Below are positions 3,458-34,821 of a stretch of 35,904 nucleotides of DNA, in pieces. The notes below the pieces were generated by a model. That model saw only the letters and a list, made by a program, of their open reading frames with translations. It searched no databases and had not been told where the DNA came from. A program made the position numbers and the translations under genes. This DNA comes from a virus. Location of the stretch: the UHGV virus genome UHGV-0042151; one strand, 5' to 3'. Position 1 is the stretch's first letter, and the number at the start of each line of letters is the position of its first letter.

Positions 3458-3610
3458 TCAGCCCTCCCATATCTCGTTATCGTTGGCCACATCGCGAGCT
3501 TCTTTGCTGACGAAAGCCCACTTAATGCCTTCCTGTAAGGTGCGGAACTTCCAGCTCATGAATCCGCATGCAGTAACGCAGTACCAACCGTTGATGATTT
3601 TCCACTGCAT
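3458..3610 (-). CDS. small hypothetical protein (50 aa), first gene of early-left operon
   Basis: Hand-translated 'MQWKIINGWYCVTACGFMSWKFRTLQEGIKWAFVSKEARDVANDNEIWEG'; GAGGT SD 9 nt upstream of ATG 3610; not in the >=60-aa ORF track. Confidence 0.35.
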   Translation of the reverse strand: MQWKIINGWYCVTACGFMSWKFRTLQEGIKWAFVSKEARDVANDNEIWEG

Positions 3611-3629: not shown

Positions 3630-3644
3630 TTACCGTTGAGGTAA
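3630..3644. promoter_or_regulatory. palindromic site TTACC-N5-GGTAA (proximal operator of early-left promoter)
   Basis: TTACCGTTGAGGTAA; lies between -10-like element and ATG 3610. Confidence 0.5.
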
Positions 3645-3672
3645 TAATTATGCGTATATGGTTTGATGTCAA
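3644..3672 (-). promoter_or_regulatory. putative sigma70 promoter of early-left operon
   Basis: Minus-strand -35 TTGACA (3672..3667), 17-bp spacer, -10 AATTAT (3649..3644); flanked by two palindromic sites. Confidence 0.45.
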
Positions 3673-3691: not shown

Positions 3692-3706
3692 TTACCCGTT
3701 AGGTAA
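3692..3706. promoter_or_regulatory. palindromic site TTACC-N5-GGTAA (distal operator of early-left promoter)
   Basis: TTACCCGTTAGGTAA; 20 bp upstream of the -35; centre 62 bp from site 3630..3644. Confidence 0.5.
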
Positions 3707-3786
3707 TCGAATAGGCAATAAAAAAGCCCCCCCAAAGCGGCGGTTCTTCTTTAAAAAAAAATTTTTTTTTTTTTTTTTTTTTTTTT

Positions 3787-3883
3787 NNNNNNNNNNNNNN
3801 NNNNNNNNNNNNNNNNNNNNNNNNNNNNNNNNNNNNNNNNNNNNNNNNNNNNNNNNNNNNNNNNNNNNNNNNNNNNNNNNNNN
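3787..3883. other. unresolved sequence (97 N) preceded by A9-T25 homopolymer tract
   Basis: Run of N at 3787-3883; track ORFs spanning it are artefacts (X residues). Confidence 0.95.
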
Positions 3884-3896
3884 GAAAAATATGGTT

Positions 3897-4481
3897 TTAT
3901 TGTTTGTTTTTTTCGTTATGGTTGATGACAAATTCAATGTAACTTTCGATCTTTGCTTTCTCGGTTTCGGGTAACAATGCGTAGCGCGAGCGATCATAGT
4001 TGATGGTCGCAGGGTCGTGCGGGTGAATCAGTAATTCATAGCCGTGACGCCCGAATGCGGATGCAACATTCTCCAGGGTGGAAATGGAAACGCTGACCTC
4101 ATTGTTTAACAGGCGGCTGATTGTCACCTGGGCTACGCCGGATGCGCGGTGAAGTTTTCCCTGTGTTGAAAGGTCGCGGCTTTCGCTCATCCAGCGTTCC
4201 AGGTTGTGAGCCGCCAGCTGGCCAATGTCGCTTGGGCCGACAGGCTGAAAACCTTCCTGAGAAAGCGAGCGATCGATATCAAGCCAGTTACGGGGTTTAT
4301 TGGCGGCAGCTTCAATTTTTCGTGCAACCTGGTCGCCGATAACCTTCTTGCCAAGAGCCCAGCGGTTTACCAGATTTGCCTGAGTTCCAAGTTTTTCAGC
4401 CATCCGCGTCTGAACACCATTGAATTCACGGTCGATCAAGTCGTTGAGATTTTGCCTGCGGACGTCCTGGATACTTTTCAT
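3897..4481 (-). CDS. phage repressor-like protein with two tandem XRE/CI-type HTH domains, no S24 peptidase domain
   Basis: 194 aa; HTH-like segments 'MAEKLGTQANLVNRWALGKK' and 'ASGVAQVTISRLLNNEVSVSISTLENVA'; divergent from Cro-like gene; no Ala-Gly/Ser-Lys autocleavage module seen. Confidence 0.65.
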   Translation of the reverse strand: MKSIQDVRRQNLNDLIDREFNGVQTRMAEKLGTQANLVNRWALGKKVIGDQVARKIEAAANKPRNWLDIDRSLSQEGFQPVGPSDIGQLAAHNLERWMSESRDLSTQGKLHRASGVAQVTISRLLNNEVSVSISTLENVASAFGRHGYELLIHPHDPATINYDRSRYALLPETEKAKIESYIEFVINHNEKNKQ

Positions 4482-4536: not shown

Positions 4537-4551
4537 TTACCCAACAGGTAA
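4537..4551. promoter_or_regulatory. palindromic site TTACC-N5-GGTAA in repressor/cro intergenic region
   Basis: TTACCCAACAGGTAA; additional half-sites GGTAA (4563-4567) and TTACC (4586-4590) nearby. Confidence 0.5.
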
Positions 4552-4635
4552 ATGCACCCCACAGGTAACTATCCTTGATTTTTGTTACCTTATGGGTGAA
4601 TATTTATTATCTGAAATAAATATCAGGCAATAGCT

Positions 4636-4866: not shown

Positions 4867-4889
4867 TATCCAGCCACAACCCTCTGTAN

Positions 4890-5024
4890 NNNNNNNNNNN
4901 NNNNNNNNNNNNNNNNNNNNNNNNNNNNNNNNNNNNNNNNNNNNNNNNNNNNNNNNNNNNNNNNNNNNNNNNNNNNNNNNNNNNNNNNNNNNNNNNNNNN
5001 NNNNNNNNNNNNNNNNNNNNNNNN
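4890..5024. other. unresolved sequence (135 N)
   Basis: Run of N at 4890-5024. Confidence 0.95.
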
Positions 5025-5046: not shown

Positions 5047-5061
5047 GTACCTCAAAGGTAA
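5047..5061. promoter_or_regulatory. palindromic site, imperfect (GTACC-N5-GGTAA)
   Basis: GTACCTCAAAGGTAA, 9/10 half-site match; 80 nt upstream of ATG 5142. Confidence 0.35.
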
Positions 5062-5141
5062 TAAAAAACCAAATCTGGTTGATCTTTTTTTTGTGTCAGC
5101 ACAAAATGACCGTAATCCCAATACTAATAACAGGGCTTACC

Positions 5142-6937: not shown

Positions 6938-6974
6938 TACCAGCGCGATAGCGCATTTTTTTACGCCTCGACAA

Positions 6975-6989
6975 TTACCTGTTAGGTAA
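6975..6989. promoter_or_regulatory. palindromic site TTACC-N5-GGTAA (distal operator)
   Basis: TTACCTGTTAGGTAA; 20 bp upstream of -35 at 7009. Confidence 0.5.
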
Positions 6990-7008
6990 TAAAATATTCT
7001 AAAATCTA

Positions 7009-7037
7009 TTGATTTCGTGTCTTATGTGGTTTTTAAT
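7009..7037 (+). promoter_or_regulatory. putative sigma70 promoter inside the early-right region
   Basis: -35 TTGATT (7009-7014), 17-bp spacer, -10 TTTAAT (7032-7037). Confidence 0.45.
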
Positions 7038-7051
7038 TACCTCAGAGGTAA
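7037..7051. promoter_or_regulatory. palindromic site TTACC-N5-GGTAA (proximal operator, overlaps RBS)
   Basis: TTACCTCAGAGGTAA ends 3 nt before ATG 7055; centre 62 bp from site 6975..6989. Confidence 0.5.
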
Positions 7052-7054
7052 ATC

Positions 7055-7399
7055 ATGAGAAAACAGATACAGGCTCTTGGTCGACTCAAAACAGGTCAGA
7101 TGAACAAAACAGAATCTGCGTATTGCCAGCACCTTGAGCTGCGTAAACGTGCAGGAGAAATCGTCTGGTATCGATTTGAGGGTATCAAGCTGCGGTTAGC
7201 TGACAACACGTTCTATACGCCCGATTTTGCTGTGATGCTCGCCACCGGCGAGATGGAACTGCACGAAGTGAAAGGTTTCTGGACCGACGACGCCAGGGTG
7301 AAAACCAAAGTCGCCGCAGATCAGTATCCGTTCCGAATCATCGGGGTAACGGTTAAACCAAAGAAAGCAGGTGGTGGCTGGATCATCGAAGAGTTCTGA
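7055..7399 (+). CDS. putative PD-(D/E)XK nuclease (DUF1064-like small phage nuclease)
   Basis: 114 aa; 'YTPDF...ELHEVKG' fits a D...E-x-K nuclease core. Confidence 0.5.
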   Translation: MRKQIQALGRLKTGQMNKTESAYCQHLELRKRAGEIVWYRFEGIKLRLADNTFYTPDFAVMLATGEMELHEVKGFWTDDARVKTKVAADQYPFRIIGVTVKPKKAGGGWIIEEF

Positions 7400-11900: not shown

Positions 11901-11915
11901 TTACCACAACGGTAA
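11901..11915. promoter_or_regulatory. palindromic site TTACC-N5-GGTAA upstream of terminase genes
   Basis: TTACCACAACGGTAA immediately after -10-like TATTAT (11895-11900), 18 nt before ATG 11933. Confidence 0.5.
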
Positions 11916-11932
11916 CAATTACCACGGTGGTT

Positions 11933-12529
11933 ATGATGCCTGCTGAACCTAAAACCTATAAACGCAAATCAACGCAATTTAAGCCGCTCACAGCAATGCA
12001 GGAGGCTTATTGCCAGTCATACATCAAAACGCCTGAAAACCAGACTCAGGCAGCGATTAACGCAGGATTCTCCCCAAATACAGCGGCAGTTAAAGCCAGT
12101 GTCATGATGCGCGATGAACGCATTCAAAAACGGATTGCCGAGTTGATGGAGGAGCGCAACAAACGAATGCGCGTCAGTGCTGATTACGTTCTCATGCGCT
12201 TGGTGGAGATCGACCAGATGGACGTGATCGATATCCTCAACGACGATGGGAGCCTTAAACCAATCCGTGAGTGGCCGAAAATCTGGCGCACTACGCTTAG
12301 TGGCTTTGATCTGTCATCGACCATCATGAACATGAACGAGGATTCGATAGAGACAATCCTCAAAAAAATTAAATGGCCTGACAAGGTGAAGAACCTAGAA
12401 CTGATTGGTAAGCATGTTGATGTCAACGCGTTCAAAGAACGTCTGGATGTTAATGTGAATGTGACAATTGCTGATCGCATAGCAGCAGCCAGGAAGCGAC
12501 TCAAAGAACGTCAGGATGGTAATCAGTGA
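11933..12529 (+). CDS. terminase small subunit
   Basis: 'LTAMQEAYCQSYIKTPENQTQAAINAGFS' matches the conserved terminase-small N-terminal pattern; start set at ATG 11933 (track start 11855 is TTG). Confidence 0.7.
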   Translation: MMPAEPKTYKRKSTQFKPLTAMQEAYCQSYIKTPENQTQAAINAGFSPNTAAVKASVMMRDERIQKRIAELMEERNKRMRVSADYVLMRLVEIDQMDVIDILNDDGSLKPIREWPKIWRTTLSGFDLSSTIMNMNEDSIETILKKIKWPDKVKNLELIGKHVDVNAFKERLDVNVNVTIADRIAAARKRLKERQDGNQ

Positions 12530-19991: not shown

Positions 19992-20315
19992 ATGGAACTC
20001 GTAAACCTCAAAACCGGCACTGACAGCTACCAGGATGAGAGCGGAGAAACCAGAACTCGCGATGAATACCCGTGGGGGCTGTGCATCACTCTTAATAACG
20101 ACACATTGAATAAGCTGAAGGCACAACCTCAGGGCGTCGGAACAGAAGTGATGATAACTGCAAAGGCTGTTATTCGAGGCCTGTCTGCCAGAGAAACTGA
20201 CGATGGTGTTAATCGCAGCGCCGATCTGCAGATCACTGATATGGCGATCGCTCCTGTTTCCGGGGATGTAGAAAAATCAGCGGCTGAAACTCTGTACGGT
20301 AACGGAGGTGAGTGA
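19992..20315 (+). CDS. hypothetical structural-module protein (107 aa)
   Basis: CAGGAG SD then ATG 19992 (track start 19986 is GTG). Confidence 0.45.
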   Translation: MELVNLKTGTDSYQDESGETRTRDEYPWGLCITLNNDTLNKLKAQPQGVGTEVMITAKAVIRGLSARETDDGVNRSADLQITDMAIAPVSGDVEKSAAETLYGNGGE

Positions 20316-32368: not shown

Positions 32369-32536
32369 CTATTTGGAGCGAAATGCCGCCTTGAAGTCGC
32401 TGAAAGATGTTCCTGTCTGGTAAACCATATCCTTGTCGCGCTCTTTGCTTGCGCGGCCAAGCATAACTTTTCCAATGACATCCCAGCATTGCTTGGCTTG
32501 TTCATTGTGCTGAGTACGATTTTTCAACGCTGTCAT
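32369..32536 (-). CDS. small hypothetical protein (55 aa), first gene of two-gene operon
   Basis: AGGAGG SD 6 nt before ATG 32536; 'MTALKNRTQHNEQAKQCWDVIGKVMLGRASKERDKDMVYQTGTSFSDFKAAFRSK'. Confidence 0.45.
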   Translation of the reverse strand: MTALKNRTQHNEQAKQCWDVIGKVMLGRASKERDKDMVYQTGTSFSDFKAAFRSK

Positions 32537-32548
32537 ATCGCGCCTCCT

Positions 32549-32563
32549 TTACCTTTAAGGTAA
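32549..32563. promoter_or_regulatory. palindromic site TTACC-N5-GGTAA at promoter of two-gene operon
   Basis: Minus-strand TTGCAG-17-TACTAT promoter-like element abuts the site; site abuts SD. Confidence 0.5.
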
Positions 32564-32611
32564 TAGTACGCTATTCACCCACAGTCTGCAATCTGTACAG
32601 AATTATTTAAA

Positions 32612-32627
32612 GGCACATCCCTGTGCC
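32612..32627 (-). terminator. possible terminator after Bro-N gene
   Basis: GGCACA-GGGA-TGTGCC hairpin with A/U-rich 3' flank on minus strand. Confidence 0.3.
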
Positions 32628-32635
32628 GCCGCCCG

Positions 32636-33322
32636 TCAGAAGAACCCAGCCTTGTCGTTGATGTACTCCGCGTGGGTCTGGATATCACGCAGGCATTTGC
32701 TCACACCAACAATGTAGCAGAACATGGTGGTCAGCTCCGCCGCCGCGCCCGATACGTCGTGCCCGTCTTCCTGTAACTGGTTCAGCAGATTCATCAGCAG
32801 TGAGTTCTCCGTCAGGCCGAGAACACCAGACGGAGAATGAATCAGGCTGCGGTAGCCGGGCTTCAGTGGGGCACTGTAGGTTTTGTTCTCTATCTTCATT
32901 GCCTGCATCACTGCTGATGCTGTGGCGTTGGCTACCTGGTCGGCAACTATCTTTATGCGTTCTTCCTGCGGGAGCGAGTTTTTAATGTAACTTCCGGTGC
33001 GGCGGATCTGAGGAAGAACCTCACCTGTAACCCATTTACGAAAGCGGTAGGGGATAGTGCCTGGTGTCACTGCGTCGCGGCAGCGGAGGATCAGTGTGTA
33101 GAGGCCTGACTCGTTGATAATATTGGTTTCACCTTGACGGCCTAAGTTAAATTTAGCCCTTTCATCATCATCAAGAGATTTTATTGACATAGTGGGGTTT
33201 GTCAGTTGAAGAGCTTTAATAACGTCTTTGGCAACAAACCAAGGATTTCCATCAATAACAATGGCTCGAATGGTGGCTTCTGATTCAAAATGAAAAACAG
33301 ATGGGGTTACGTTAGCAGTCAT
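32636..33322 (-). CDS. Bro-N domain antirepressor-like protein
   Basis: N-terminus 'IRAIVIDGNPWFVAKDVIKALQL...GLYTLILR' fits Bro-N; C-terminal domain homologous to the 34473..34730 product; AGGTGA SD then ATG 33322. Confidence 0.65.
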   Translation of the reverse strand: MTANVTPSVFHFESEATIRAIVIDGNPWFVAKDVIKALQLTNPTMSIKSLDDDERAKFNLGRQGETNIINESGLYTLILRCRDAVTPGTIPYRFRKWVTGEVLPQIRRTGSYIKNSLPQEERIKIVADQVANATASAVMQAMKIENKTYSAPLKPGYRSLIHSPSGVLGLTENSLLMNLLNQLQEDGHDVSGAAAELTTMFCYIVGVSKCLRDIQTHAEYINDKAGFF

Positions 33323-33481
33323 AGTGATCACCTTTTAGTATGGTTAATCACCACCTGAGGTGCAAATCTCGTTGGTGGTGAGACGTACAGGGTTTGCACT
33401 ACCGGCTAAAAGGACCCGGCGCACCTTTCGGTGCCCCTGCACGTCCCACCATAATTCTGGCATGACTGTGCTATACGCATA

Positions 33482-33503
33482 AAAAAACCACGTCTGGCGT
33501 GGT
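33482..33503 (-). terminator. intrinsic terminator inside Bro-N upstream region (possible sRNA or attenuator 3' end)
   Basis: Minus strand ACCACG-CCAGA-CGTGGT followed by U7. Confidence 0.4.
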
Positions 33504-33593
33504 ATGCGCCTTTTAGTAATCCGGGGTGCAAATCCCGGCACTGGATTTTGCCAGTGCCCGATTACTATGGCACAAGAGGAGTGCGATGTAAAT

Positions 33594-33608
33594 TTACCGA
33601 AAAGGTAA
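33594..33608. promoter_or_regulatory. palindromic site TTACC-N5-GGTAA
   Basis: TTACCGAAAAGGTAA; about 90 bp upstream (minus sense) of the 33482 terminator. Confidence 0.45.
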
Positions 33609-33686
33609 TGATAAGCGCGAAAAAACATTAAAATCAACCGTATTTGGTTGATTGCGTTTAACGCTTGATCACCTGAAAGCAAGATA

Positions 33687-33701
33687 TTACCTTTAAGGTA
33701 A
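33687..33701. promoter_or_regulatory. palindromic site TTACC-N5-GGTAA upstream of 33722 gene
   Basis: TTACCTTTAAGGTAA, 20 nt before ATG 33722, just 5' of GAGGA SD. Confidence 0.5.
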
Positions 33702-33721
33702 TGTTATTGTGAGGAAAAGCA

Positions 33722-34450
33722 ATGGAAGTTTTCTGGATAGTTGTTGGTGTGGTTGCGGTGATTATTTACGTTATCAACCAGAACAAGACTAAGATCTCTG
33801 ATCGTACGGTCGTTAATCAGAACAAAACGATAAAGACCGAAGATGGGGAGATAACGATTAATCGTACACAGGTGATAGAGCACACATCTACTCAGTTTCA
33901 AAAAACTGGAGGTAACGCGCCTGATATTTCCGTACCTCCTGCTTATGATAGTGCGGTAATCCAGACATATTATAAACAGCAGGAGTTAGCAAAAGAGAGG
34001 CAACTGATTCAGCCAAAGCCGTTTACAGCTGAGCTTCCACCTGGAGTGTCAACGCGTCCGGCATATCATGGAAGATTCCCTGGTGATGACATATCGTCTC
34101 AGTCATTTAAAAAAGCACCTCAGGCAGTATCAGAGCCAGCAAGAATATCTTCTGTATCGCCGCCAAAAGAAGAATCAGCTAACAGAGTTTCAAGCGGTAG
34201 CAAGCAGTGCTTGCGATGCAGAATAAACCTTCCATATGAAAAATTCAGGAAATCGTCAAAAAATCCGGATGGATTGACTAAGTGGTGTGCAAGGTGTCTC
34301 GATGGCCCAAAGAATACACGTCATATGAAGTGGTGCCCAATTTGTAATGTCCGCAGAAAACGAACCAGCTTTTACCCTAATAATCAAAATGCGGACGGCT
34401 TAATGGCATGGTGCAAAACGTGCTGGGACGAGCACAAAGCGAAACGATAG
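33722..34450 (+). CDS. membrane-anchored protein with duplicated C-terminal zinc-ribbon (CxxC...WCxxC) modules
   Basis: N-terminal TM helix 'FWIVVGVVAVIIYVI'; 'CLRCRIN...WCARCLD' and 'WCPICNV...WCKTCWD'. Confidence 0.5.
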   Translation: MEVFWIVVGVVAVIIYVINQNKTKISDRTVVNQNKTIKTEDGEITINRTQVIEHTSTQFQKTGGNAPDISVPPAYDSAVIQTYYKQQELAKERQLIQPKPFTAELPPGVSTRPAYHGRFPGDDISSQSFKKAPQAVSEPARISSVSPPKEESANRVSSGSKQCLRCRINLPYEKFRKSSKNPDGLTKWCARCLDGPKNTRHMKWCPICNVRRKRTSFYPNNQNADGLMAWCKTCWDEHKAKR

Positions 34451-34751: not shown

Positions 34752-34767
34752 CTGTATATTTATACAG
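34752..34767. promoter_or_regulatory. LexA (SOS) box
   Basis: CTGTATATTTATACAG = CTGT-N8-ACAG with AT-rich core; extended AACTGTATATTTATACAGTA matches 18/20 of the consensus TACTGTATATATATACAGTA. Confidence 0.6.
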
Positions 34768-34806: not shown

Positions 34807-34821
34807 TTACCTGAAAGGTAA
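34807..34821. promoter_or_regulatory. palindromic site TTACC-N5-GGTAA between antirepressor and tailspike genes
   Basis: TTACCTGAAAGGTAA. Confidence 0.45.

Follow-up and report, generated by a model that had tools for sequence, protein, structure and literature searches.

Repression through bracketing or phased operators is known from several systems, including lambda CI, with sites 5-6 turns apart, GalR OE/OI, LacI O1/O3 and pLS20 Rco. Phages in which a single repressor serves many scattered operators are likewise established, the examples being P1 C1 and the stoperators of mycobacteriophage L5.

The described system closest to the locus analyzed here is the Rep/Ant switch of Salmonella phage SPC32H, for which the Rep tetramer and its disassembly by Ant have been solved, while the placement of the tetramer on real promoters is apparently undescribed in the sources consulted. 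According to secondary literature on SPC32H, Rep binds DNA as a tetramer, dimers bind weakly and one tetramer is enough for repression. This literature also states that N-terminal domains from different dimers read each palindrome, and it likens the C-terminal tetramerisation domain to that of Rco, the loop-forming repressor of pLS20. In phage epsilon15, the RefSeq record (NC_004775) lists seven palindromes as 'protein_bind: repressor / lysogeny', an annotation that is itself a prediction; these include a pair at the early-left promoter (PL) with centres 62 bp apart and a further site upstream of the resolvase gene, which corresponds to the distal operator of the right-hand (middle) promoter, hereafter Pmid.

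The repressor family, the antirepressor, the LexA link and the operator motif are thus already known or annotated. What may be unreported is a bracket of two operators, typically 62 bp apart, that encloses each of two promoters and is conserved across 23 Rep clusters, as may be its 74-75-bp variant; a literature text search for the motif together with epsilon15 returned no match. We describe this arrangement in a 35,904-nt stretch of virus genome UHGV-0042151, referred to in its entirety as the window.

Results

A Rep/Ant/LexA switch in a phiV10-like genome

The region shares 96-98% identity with Escherichia phage phiV10 and related phages of the genus Uetakevirus and, judged by its sequence, the window is a phiV10/epsilon15-like temperate podophage. 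Residues 1-190 of its Rep align with residues 2-197 of PDB entry 5D50_A, the SPC32H Rep (E=1.7e-41), and residues 89-190 align with the C-terminal fragment in 5D4Z; overall identity to SPC32H Rep is about 41%. Pfam matched HTH families only, with HTH_3 at residues 106-147, and found no Peptidase_S24 autocleavage domain in Rep. Upstream of the ant homologue lies the sequence CTGTATATTTATACAG, which fits the LexA box consensus CTGT-N8-ACAG (Table 1). Together, the Rep and Ant homologues, the LexA box and the lack of an S24 domain point to the presence of a complete Rep/Ant/LexA switch. In the ZX5 study, over-expression of an identical repressor blocked lytic transcription; the operator was not defined there.

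Comparison of six Reps sharing 42-77% identity revealed an invariant N-terminal segment, including an 'NLVNRW' helix, followed by a variable linker with indels, and the phages of all six use the same half-site. The invariant segment and the common half-site fit Rep as the reader of TTACC, and from database annotation and co-occurrence we infer that Rep is the binder of TTACC-N5-GGTAA. N-terminal-domain-only relatives at Paraburkholderia and Hydrogenovibrio loci (L014-L018) were accompanied by no such motif. The Cro-like protein encoded beside rep shows weak HTH similarity to the Rep N-terminal domain, and its recognition helix differs from that of Rep. A first-pass annotation of the window had interpreted the palindromes as operators of one dimeric repressor. 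Motif enrichment, the 'repressor' annotation in epsilon15 and the Rep homologue all support a single repressor; as to its form, homology to SPC32H Rep makes a tetramer with two DNA-binding heads likelier than a dimer.

Table 1. Coordinates of the switch components, promoter modules and further operators in the window (PL, early-left promoter; Pmid, right-hand or middle promoter)
Feature	Position	Strand	Basis and remarks
rep; N-terminal DNA-binding, middle HTH-like dimerisation and C-terminal tetramerisation domains	3897..4481	-	PDB 5D50_A match
ant; antirepressor homologue, 85 aa	34473..34730	-	PDB 5D50_E match, E=4.1e-47
LexA box	34752..34767		Read directly; 21 nt upstream of ant start codon
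Cro-like HTH protein, 76 aa	4636..4866	+	phrog_35 'transcriptional repressor', E=6e-13
PL distal operator	3692..3706	-	Exact motif, full 17-bp form ATTACC..GGTAAT; centred at about -62; position filled in all relatives
PL -35, TTGACA	3667..3672	-	Promoter scan
PL -10, AATTAT	3644..3649	-	Promoter scan; 17-nt spacer
PL proximal operator	3630..3644	-	Exact motif; over last -10 base and predicted +1 (~3637)
First early-left operon gene, 50 aa, phiV10 gp39 homologue	3458..3610	-	ORF list and phiV10 annotation
Hairpin GCGC-GAUA-GCGC with U7 tract; weak intrinsic terminator ending the replication-gene unit	6943..6962	+	Fold -7.4 kcal/mol
Pmid distal operator	6975..6989	+	Exact motif; homologous epsilon15 site 35906-35922 annotated 'protein_bind: repressor'
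Pmid -35, TTGATT	7009..7014	+	Read directly
Pmid putative -10, TTTAAT	7032..7037	+	Read directly; 17-nt spacer; lacks A at -11
Pmid proximal operator	7037..7051	+	Exact motif; holds -10 end, predicted +1 (~7044) and Shine-Dalgarno GAGG
DUF1064 gene, first downstream of Pmid	7055..7399	+	Pfam PF06356, E=2.8e-7
Immunity-region operators, rep to cro-like gene	4537-4551; 4554-4568; 4585-4599		Exact; 2 mismatches; 1 mismatch
Operator pair with 18-bp spacing, directly upstream of small terminase gene	11901..11933
Operator in divergent region between ant and tailspike gene	34807..34821		Exact motif; homologous SPC32H site 20013-20027

The operator is dispersed over the window

Exact TTACC-N5-GGTAA occurs 11 times in the window, compared with 0.02 copies expected from shuffles, and copies with up to two mismatches number 37 against an expected 9.7. 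The motif is not confined to the two promoters. Beyond the two promoter pairs, copies lie at 4537, 11901, 11919, 15109 (upstream of the portal unit), 32549, 33594, 33687 and 34807. The same enrichment was found in six related phage genomes. What is conserved in the half-site is TTACC, followed only by a preference for T, and the distal sites of the promoter modules form the better 17-bp palindromes. A resemblance to an MqsA-like palindrome, ACCT-N3-AGGT, was considered and dropped, as the half-site is TTACC and the link to Rep is far stronger.

Several of these positions recur in relatives. Window operators match epsilon15 sites 12, 2931, 19895, 32554, 32616 and 35906 in position; the 17 + 30/31-bp spacing of the immunity-region operators reappears in related phages, and the pair at 11901-11933 is also present in phiV10, Tyrion, epsilon15 and BUCT554. 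For the single operators (15109, 32549 and 34807), a search for weak partners at a distance of 62 bp found none. The epsilon15 record omits three immunity-region operators (33341-33402) and the proximal Pmid operator (35969-35983), all exact or with one mismatch in the sequence; without the proximal site, the paired layout of Pmid is not captured in that record.

Other operators showed individual features. After the terminator of the cro-like gene (5047-5110), the one-mismatch operator GTACCTCAAAGGTAA is followed 17 nt later by TTGATC-17-CAAAAT, and this operator is kept in phiV10 (33112) and Tyrion (35365); judged by this arrangement, it may be part of a third operator-plus-promoter, with a distal-type site only, serving gp42 and the replication genes. 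The operators upstream of terS fall inside the annotated terS CDS of phiV10 (41-715), at phiV10 87-119, and the same operators lie just before the terS start codon in epsilon15 and Tyrion, so that in phiV10 the annotated start of terS probably lies too far upstream. In a cargo-like region (32500-34450), the operator at 32549 sits just upstream of a 193-aa gene, and those at 33594 and 33687, 93 bp apart, flank a divergent region; a Bro-N domain protein (32636-33331, minus strand) and a 242-aa protein (33722-34450) with a weak Stc1-like zinc-finger match are encoded there as well. Finally, two runs of N (3740-3883 and 4889-5024) fall at the very positions of two GC-hairpin terminators in phiV10, one behind rep and one behind the cro-like gene. 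An odd A9/T27 homopolymer stretch and a garbled hairpin come before the first run, and the runs look like an assembly or scaffolding artefact at hairpins rather than biology.

Two operators bracket each of two predicted promoters

Read directly from the sequence, the exact operators of the left module are centred at 3637 and 3699 and those of the right module at 6982 and 7044, a centre-to-centre distance of 62 bp in each pair. On the minus strand of the left module, the distal site is followed after 19 nt by TTGACA, then by a 17-nt spacer, AATTAT and the proximal site; on the plus strand of the right module, TTGATT and TTTAAT occupy the same places at the same distances. In both cases, the final T of the -10 element is the opening T of the proximal site. 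This overlap places the predicted +1 at the centre of the proximal site (~3637 and ~7044) and the centre of the distal site near -62.

The order of distal site, -35, 17 bp, -10 and proximal site over +1, as well as the 62-bp spacing, had been noted in the first-pass annotation, and both hold exactly at the two oppositely oriented promoters. Two details required revision: the gap from distal site to -35 had been given as 20 bp and is 19 nt when the site is taken as a 15-mer, and the modules, described as identical, are so in layout but not in sequence, with 48 of 77 bases alike overall and 24 of 47 between the operators. The inter-operator DNA has an AT content of 77-79%, compared with 51% for the window, and would be expected to bend easily. 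A T-tract or TAAAAT directly follows the distal site. In helical terms, 62 bp corresponds to 5.90 turns, and the range of 61-64 bp to 5.8-6.1 turns.

PL, which the phiV10 annotation places between the rep terminator and the first early-left gene, scores 10 of 12 against the sigma-70 consensus in a consensus scan (TTGACA-17-AATTAT). Its -35 is TTGACA or TTGACT in 124 distinct PL modules, and its -10 reads AATTAT, GATTAT, AATCAT or TATTAT in relatives, with A at position 2 in all clades. A TTGATG on the plus strand inside the PL module was considered as a -35 and discarded as an orientation artefact, having no accompanying -10.

Pmid scores 9 of 12 (TTGATT-17-TTTAAT), carries T in place of A at position 2 of its -10 and was not called by the scan. 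Since the -10 has no A at -11, it is less certain that Pmid is active than that PL is. The promoter that the scan did propose here, TCGACA-16-TAAAAT (6968-6995), was rejected, since phiV10, Tyrion and epsilon15 do not share its -35. In the phiV10 annotation, the right module is flanked by the terminator that follows the replication genes and by the DUF1064 gene. The hairpin with its U7 tract recurs in the same form in epsilon15 and a Klebsiella phage and is recorded in phiV10 as a 'putative rho-independent terminator'. The earlier placement of Pmid just upstream of a DUF1064-like gene was borne out by Pfam; its placement inside the early-right operon does not simply hold, because the conserved hairpin and U7 tract precede it and make the site look like the start of a separate transcription unit. 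On these sequence features, Pmid is probably the start of a separate 'middle' unit, with a putative weaker promoter.

The DUF1064 gene has its Shine-Dalgarno GAGG 6-11 nt before the ATG at 7055, and one 15-bp operator (7037-7051) thereby carries the last -10 base, the predicted start and the GAGG. The right operator half, GAGGTAA, is kept across clades, which indicates that the otherwise 'free' spacer of the operator is constrained here by translation signals.

The spacing is conserved across Rep clusters

Conservation of the spacing in homologous phages had been named beforehand as a point on which the proposal would stand or fall, and the bracket was present in every full-length-Rep clade examined. 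In phiV10, Tyrion, epsilon15, BUCT554 and SPC32H, it measures exactly 62 bp at both promoters; a Klebsiella phage has 62 bp at Pmid and 63 bp at PL. Eight modules from four phages aligned without gaps over 107 columns, in which the operators and 'TATTGA' (-35) are invariant and the remainder varies.

The sample was then widened by one genome-contig scan and four viral-contig scans, the first of which matched only Reps 99% identical to that of the window, while later ones were queried with divergent Reps. Counted as distinct sequences, the long spacings between adjacent operators were 62 bp (226), 63 bp (29), 61 bp (3) and 64 bp (1). Clustering 375 Rep-encoding loci at 90% identity gave 23 clusters. 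By cluster, the PL bracket measured 62 bp in 14, 63 bp in two, 61 bp in one, 64 bp in one and 74-75 bp in five, and the Pmid bracket 62 bp in 14 and 61 bp in one. The claim of exactly 62 bp is therefore correct for the window and for the mode, whereas 61, 63, 64 and 74-75 bp also occur in relatives.

All variation of PL between 61 and 64 bp stems from the length of the T-tract beside the distal site, and nearly all relatives have the proximal operator 22 nt past the -35. At Pmid, the two distances are constant at 19 + 22 nt, with the exception of one Scandinavium prophage, in which both promoters measure 61 bp. The sub-distances are conserved separately, and one-base changes are never compensated.

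To obtain an unbiased view, we also searched the viral collection for all pairs of exact operators separated by 51-81 bp, ignoring Rep, and found mostly 62-63 bp, plus other values. Pairs at 76 and 84-86 bp were considered as whole-turn variants and rejected: they are formed by the proximal operator and a third one that closely precedes the first PL gene, at loci whose bracket remains 62-64 bp. Spacings of 45-56, 66-67, 79 and 81 bp belonged to unrelated contexts, namely isolated pairs without Rep, tandem arrays or other palindrome systems. Four IMG/VR loci (L321, L327, L380 and L338) contained dense arrays of the very similar palindromes GTTACCAAATCGGTAAC or GTTACCTCCGAGGTAAC; no full-length Rep homologue was found at these four loci, which may represent other systems with a related half-site.

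A true variant of 74-75 bp, or about 7.05-7.1 turns, was found in five divergent Rep clusters (45-53% identity; IMG/VR contigs L313, L315, L331, L379 and L403). Here, distal site, -35, spacer and -10 keep their normal arrangement, the full operator lies 12 bp further downstream, and the old proximal site survives as its left half only. In L331, one of these contigs, three operators mark the counterpart of the middle promoter, at 0, 53 and 73 bp, and one falls within the -35/-10 spacer. Rep-linked brackets thus occur at 61-64 or 74-75 bp only, with none at 51-60 or 65-73 bp and none close to a half turn. This distribution suggests helical phasing without proving it, as it comprises just two classes and a single event may account for the 12-bp shift.

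A proposed clamp by one Rep tetramer and its alternatives

The reading we prefer, and hold to be moderately probable, is that PL and Pmid are two Rep-controlled sigma-70-type promoters, each clamped by one Rep tetramer and released by Ant. From the arrangement of motifs and homologues, we infer Rep-motif binding, bridging by one tetramer, the transcription starts and the activity of Pmid. PL would fire leftward from about 3637, and Pmid would fire rightward from about 7044, restarting transcription past the weak terminator and driving the DUF1064 gene and the genes downstream of it. In the repressed state, one Rep tetramer, with two heads each formed by a pair of N-terminal domains, would hold the distal and proximal operators together, which at 62 bp (5.9 turns) would lie on nearly the same helix face. 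By bending or looping the AT-rich 47 bp that contain the -35 and -10, the tetramer would shut out RNA polymerase. Upon SOS induction, LexA would leave the ant promoter and Ant would split Rep tetramers into dimers; with both heads lost together, we propose that PL, Pmid and the other operator-controlled units would open at once.

More tentatively, and with a shade less than even confidence, the 62-bp bracket may be the natural two-site substrate of one tetramer, forming a -62/+1 clamp with a micro-loop of about 47 bp at both promoters; Ant would then open all of these clamps, and the 74-75-bp form would be a clamp one turn longer. Straight DNA of 62 bp measures about 21 nm and exceeds a tetramer of about 90 kDa, so that bridging would need DNA bending or the variable linker of 15-20 residues. 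Rep would also have to work without a partner at 62 bp, given that the other operators are single or paired at 17-18 bp.

The single and closely paired operators elsewhere in the genome also fit an alternative that we consider unlikely, in which the two sites act independently and no bridging takes place. The proximal site alone would block polymerase, the distal site would block an UP-like region or raise the local amount of Rep, and the constant 62 bp would simply follow from the fixed placement of each site with respect to the -35 and -10. The T-tract or TAAAAT after the distal site lies where an UP element would sit, and the separate conservation of the 19- and 22-nt sub-distances agrees with such a layout, as do the uncompensated one-base changes, which are equally compatible with promoter-relative and operator-to-operator positioning. 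However, -62 is outside the core promoter, and its strict occupancy across 23 Rep clusters is hard to explain without an interaction between this site and the proximal one or polymerase. Moreover, SPC32H Rep dimers are described as weak binders and the active form as two-headed in secondary literature, and the only large variant, at 74-75 bp, keeps nearly the same helical phase.

Concerning Pmid, it is conceivable, if rather improbable, that the right module (6975-7051) is not an active promoter but a diverged copy of PL, bound by Rep as a roadblock or insulator that stops read-through from the replication genes into the DUF1064 and late-regulator genes in the lysogen. Read-through is plausible given the 4-bp stem of the upstream terminator, the module has its skeleton and 48 of 77 bases in common with PL, and the -10, which is TTTAAT in the window and TTTAAT, TTAAAT or ATAAAT in relatives, lacks the -11 A in all these forms and was not called by the scan of the window. 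A mere roadblock would have no need, though, of the -35 (CTA-TTGAnn; TTGATT, TTGATA or TTGAAA) and the 17-nt spacing that are kept in more than 130 distinct sequences, and the terminator followed by a promoter forms a coherent unit boundary. The Shine-Dalgarno inside the proximal operator likewise suits a start at about 7044.

Class I (CAP-like) activators are positioned at -61.5, and the position of the distal centre, which is -62 relative to the predicted start at the two promoters as well as in nearly all relatives, the better 17-bp palindromes of the distal sites and the Cro-like HTH protein encoded beside rep would suit a protein (the Cro-like one, or Rep dimers at low concentration) that contacts the polymerase alpha subunit from the distal site, activating when bound there only and repressing when both sites are filled, but PL is already near-consensus and the recognition helix of the Cro-like protein differs from that of Rep, which leaves this a very improbable reading. 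The 74-75-bp clade, in which the proximal and not the distal site moves, is neutral on this point.

Discussion

If the one-tetramer clamp is true, it would be one of the tightest natural repression loops. For structural and single-molecule studies, the 77-bp bracket provides the Rep tetramer with a concrete target on natural DNA, and shifting its operators by half or whole turns would put the 'trans' binding model to an easy test. The bracket would also explain how a single LexA-controlled antirepressor might activate the early-left, middle and late units jointly and with no need of lambda-style antitermination, and phiV10-like genomes could, on the operator positions, be annotated as divided into several Rep-gated transcription units.

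Comparison with known systems

The window resembles the SPC32H Rep/Ant switch in its full-length Rep and Ant homologues, the LexA box at ant and a Rep without autocleavage domain, and the operator motif is also that of the SPC32H genome, whose own 62-bp brackets lie at 33604/33666 and 35972/36034. It differs in belonging to the E. coli phiV10 branch, with a Rep that has diverged to the identity of about 41% given above. The dispersed 'repressor' sites of epsilon15 are the same 15-17-bp palindrome, upstream of terS and the portal unit, in the ant/tailspike region and at PL and Pmid; the difference lies in the seven listed sites, which leave out the proximal Pmid operator and three sites of the immunity region.

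With the operators of P1 C1 and L5, the window has in common that one repressor serves about a dozen sites, which are spread across the early, middle and late parts of the genome. In P1 C1 and L5, the sites are asymmetric and scattered within transcription units, whereas those of the window are symmetric palindromes at promoters or unit boundaries and come in fixed pairs (17-18, 48 and 62 bp). Lambda CI, GalR, LacI and Rco resemble it in that a single oligomeric repressor has a pair of operators, which lie on roughly one helical face and enclose promoter elements. Compared with these, the bracket of the window is much tighter, with 47 bp between the sites, and occurs at two promoters per genome, and looping is here a proposal drawn from the layout. 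A further difference would lie in the repressor itself, as each Rep head is built from two different dimers in the SPC32H protein, according to the secondary literature.
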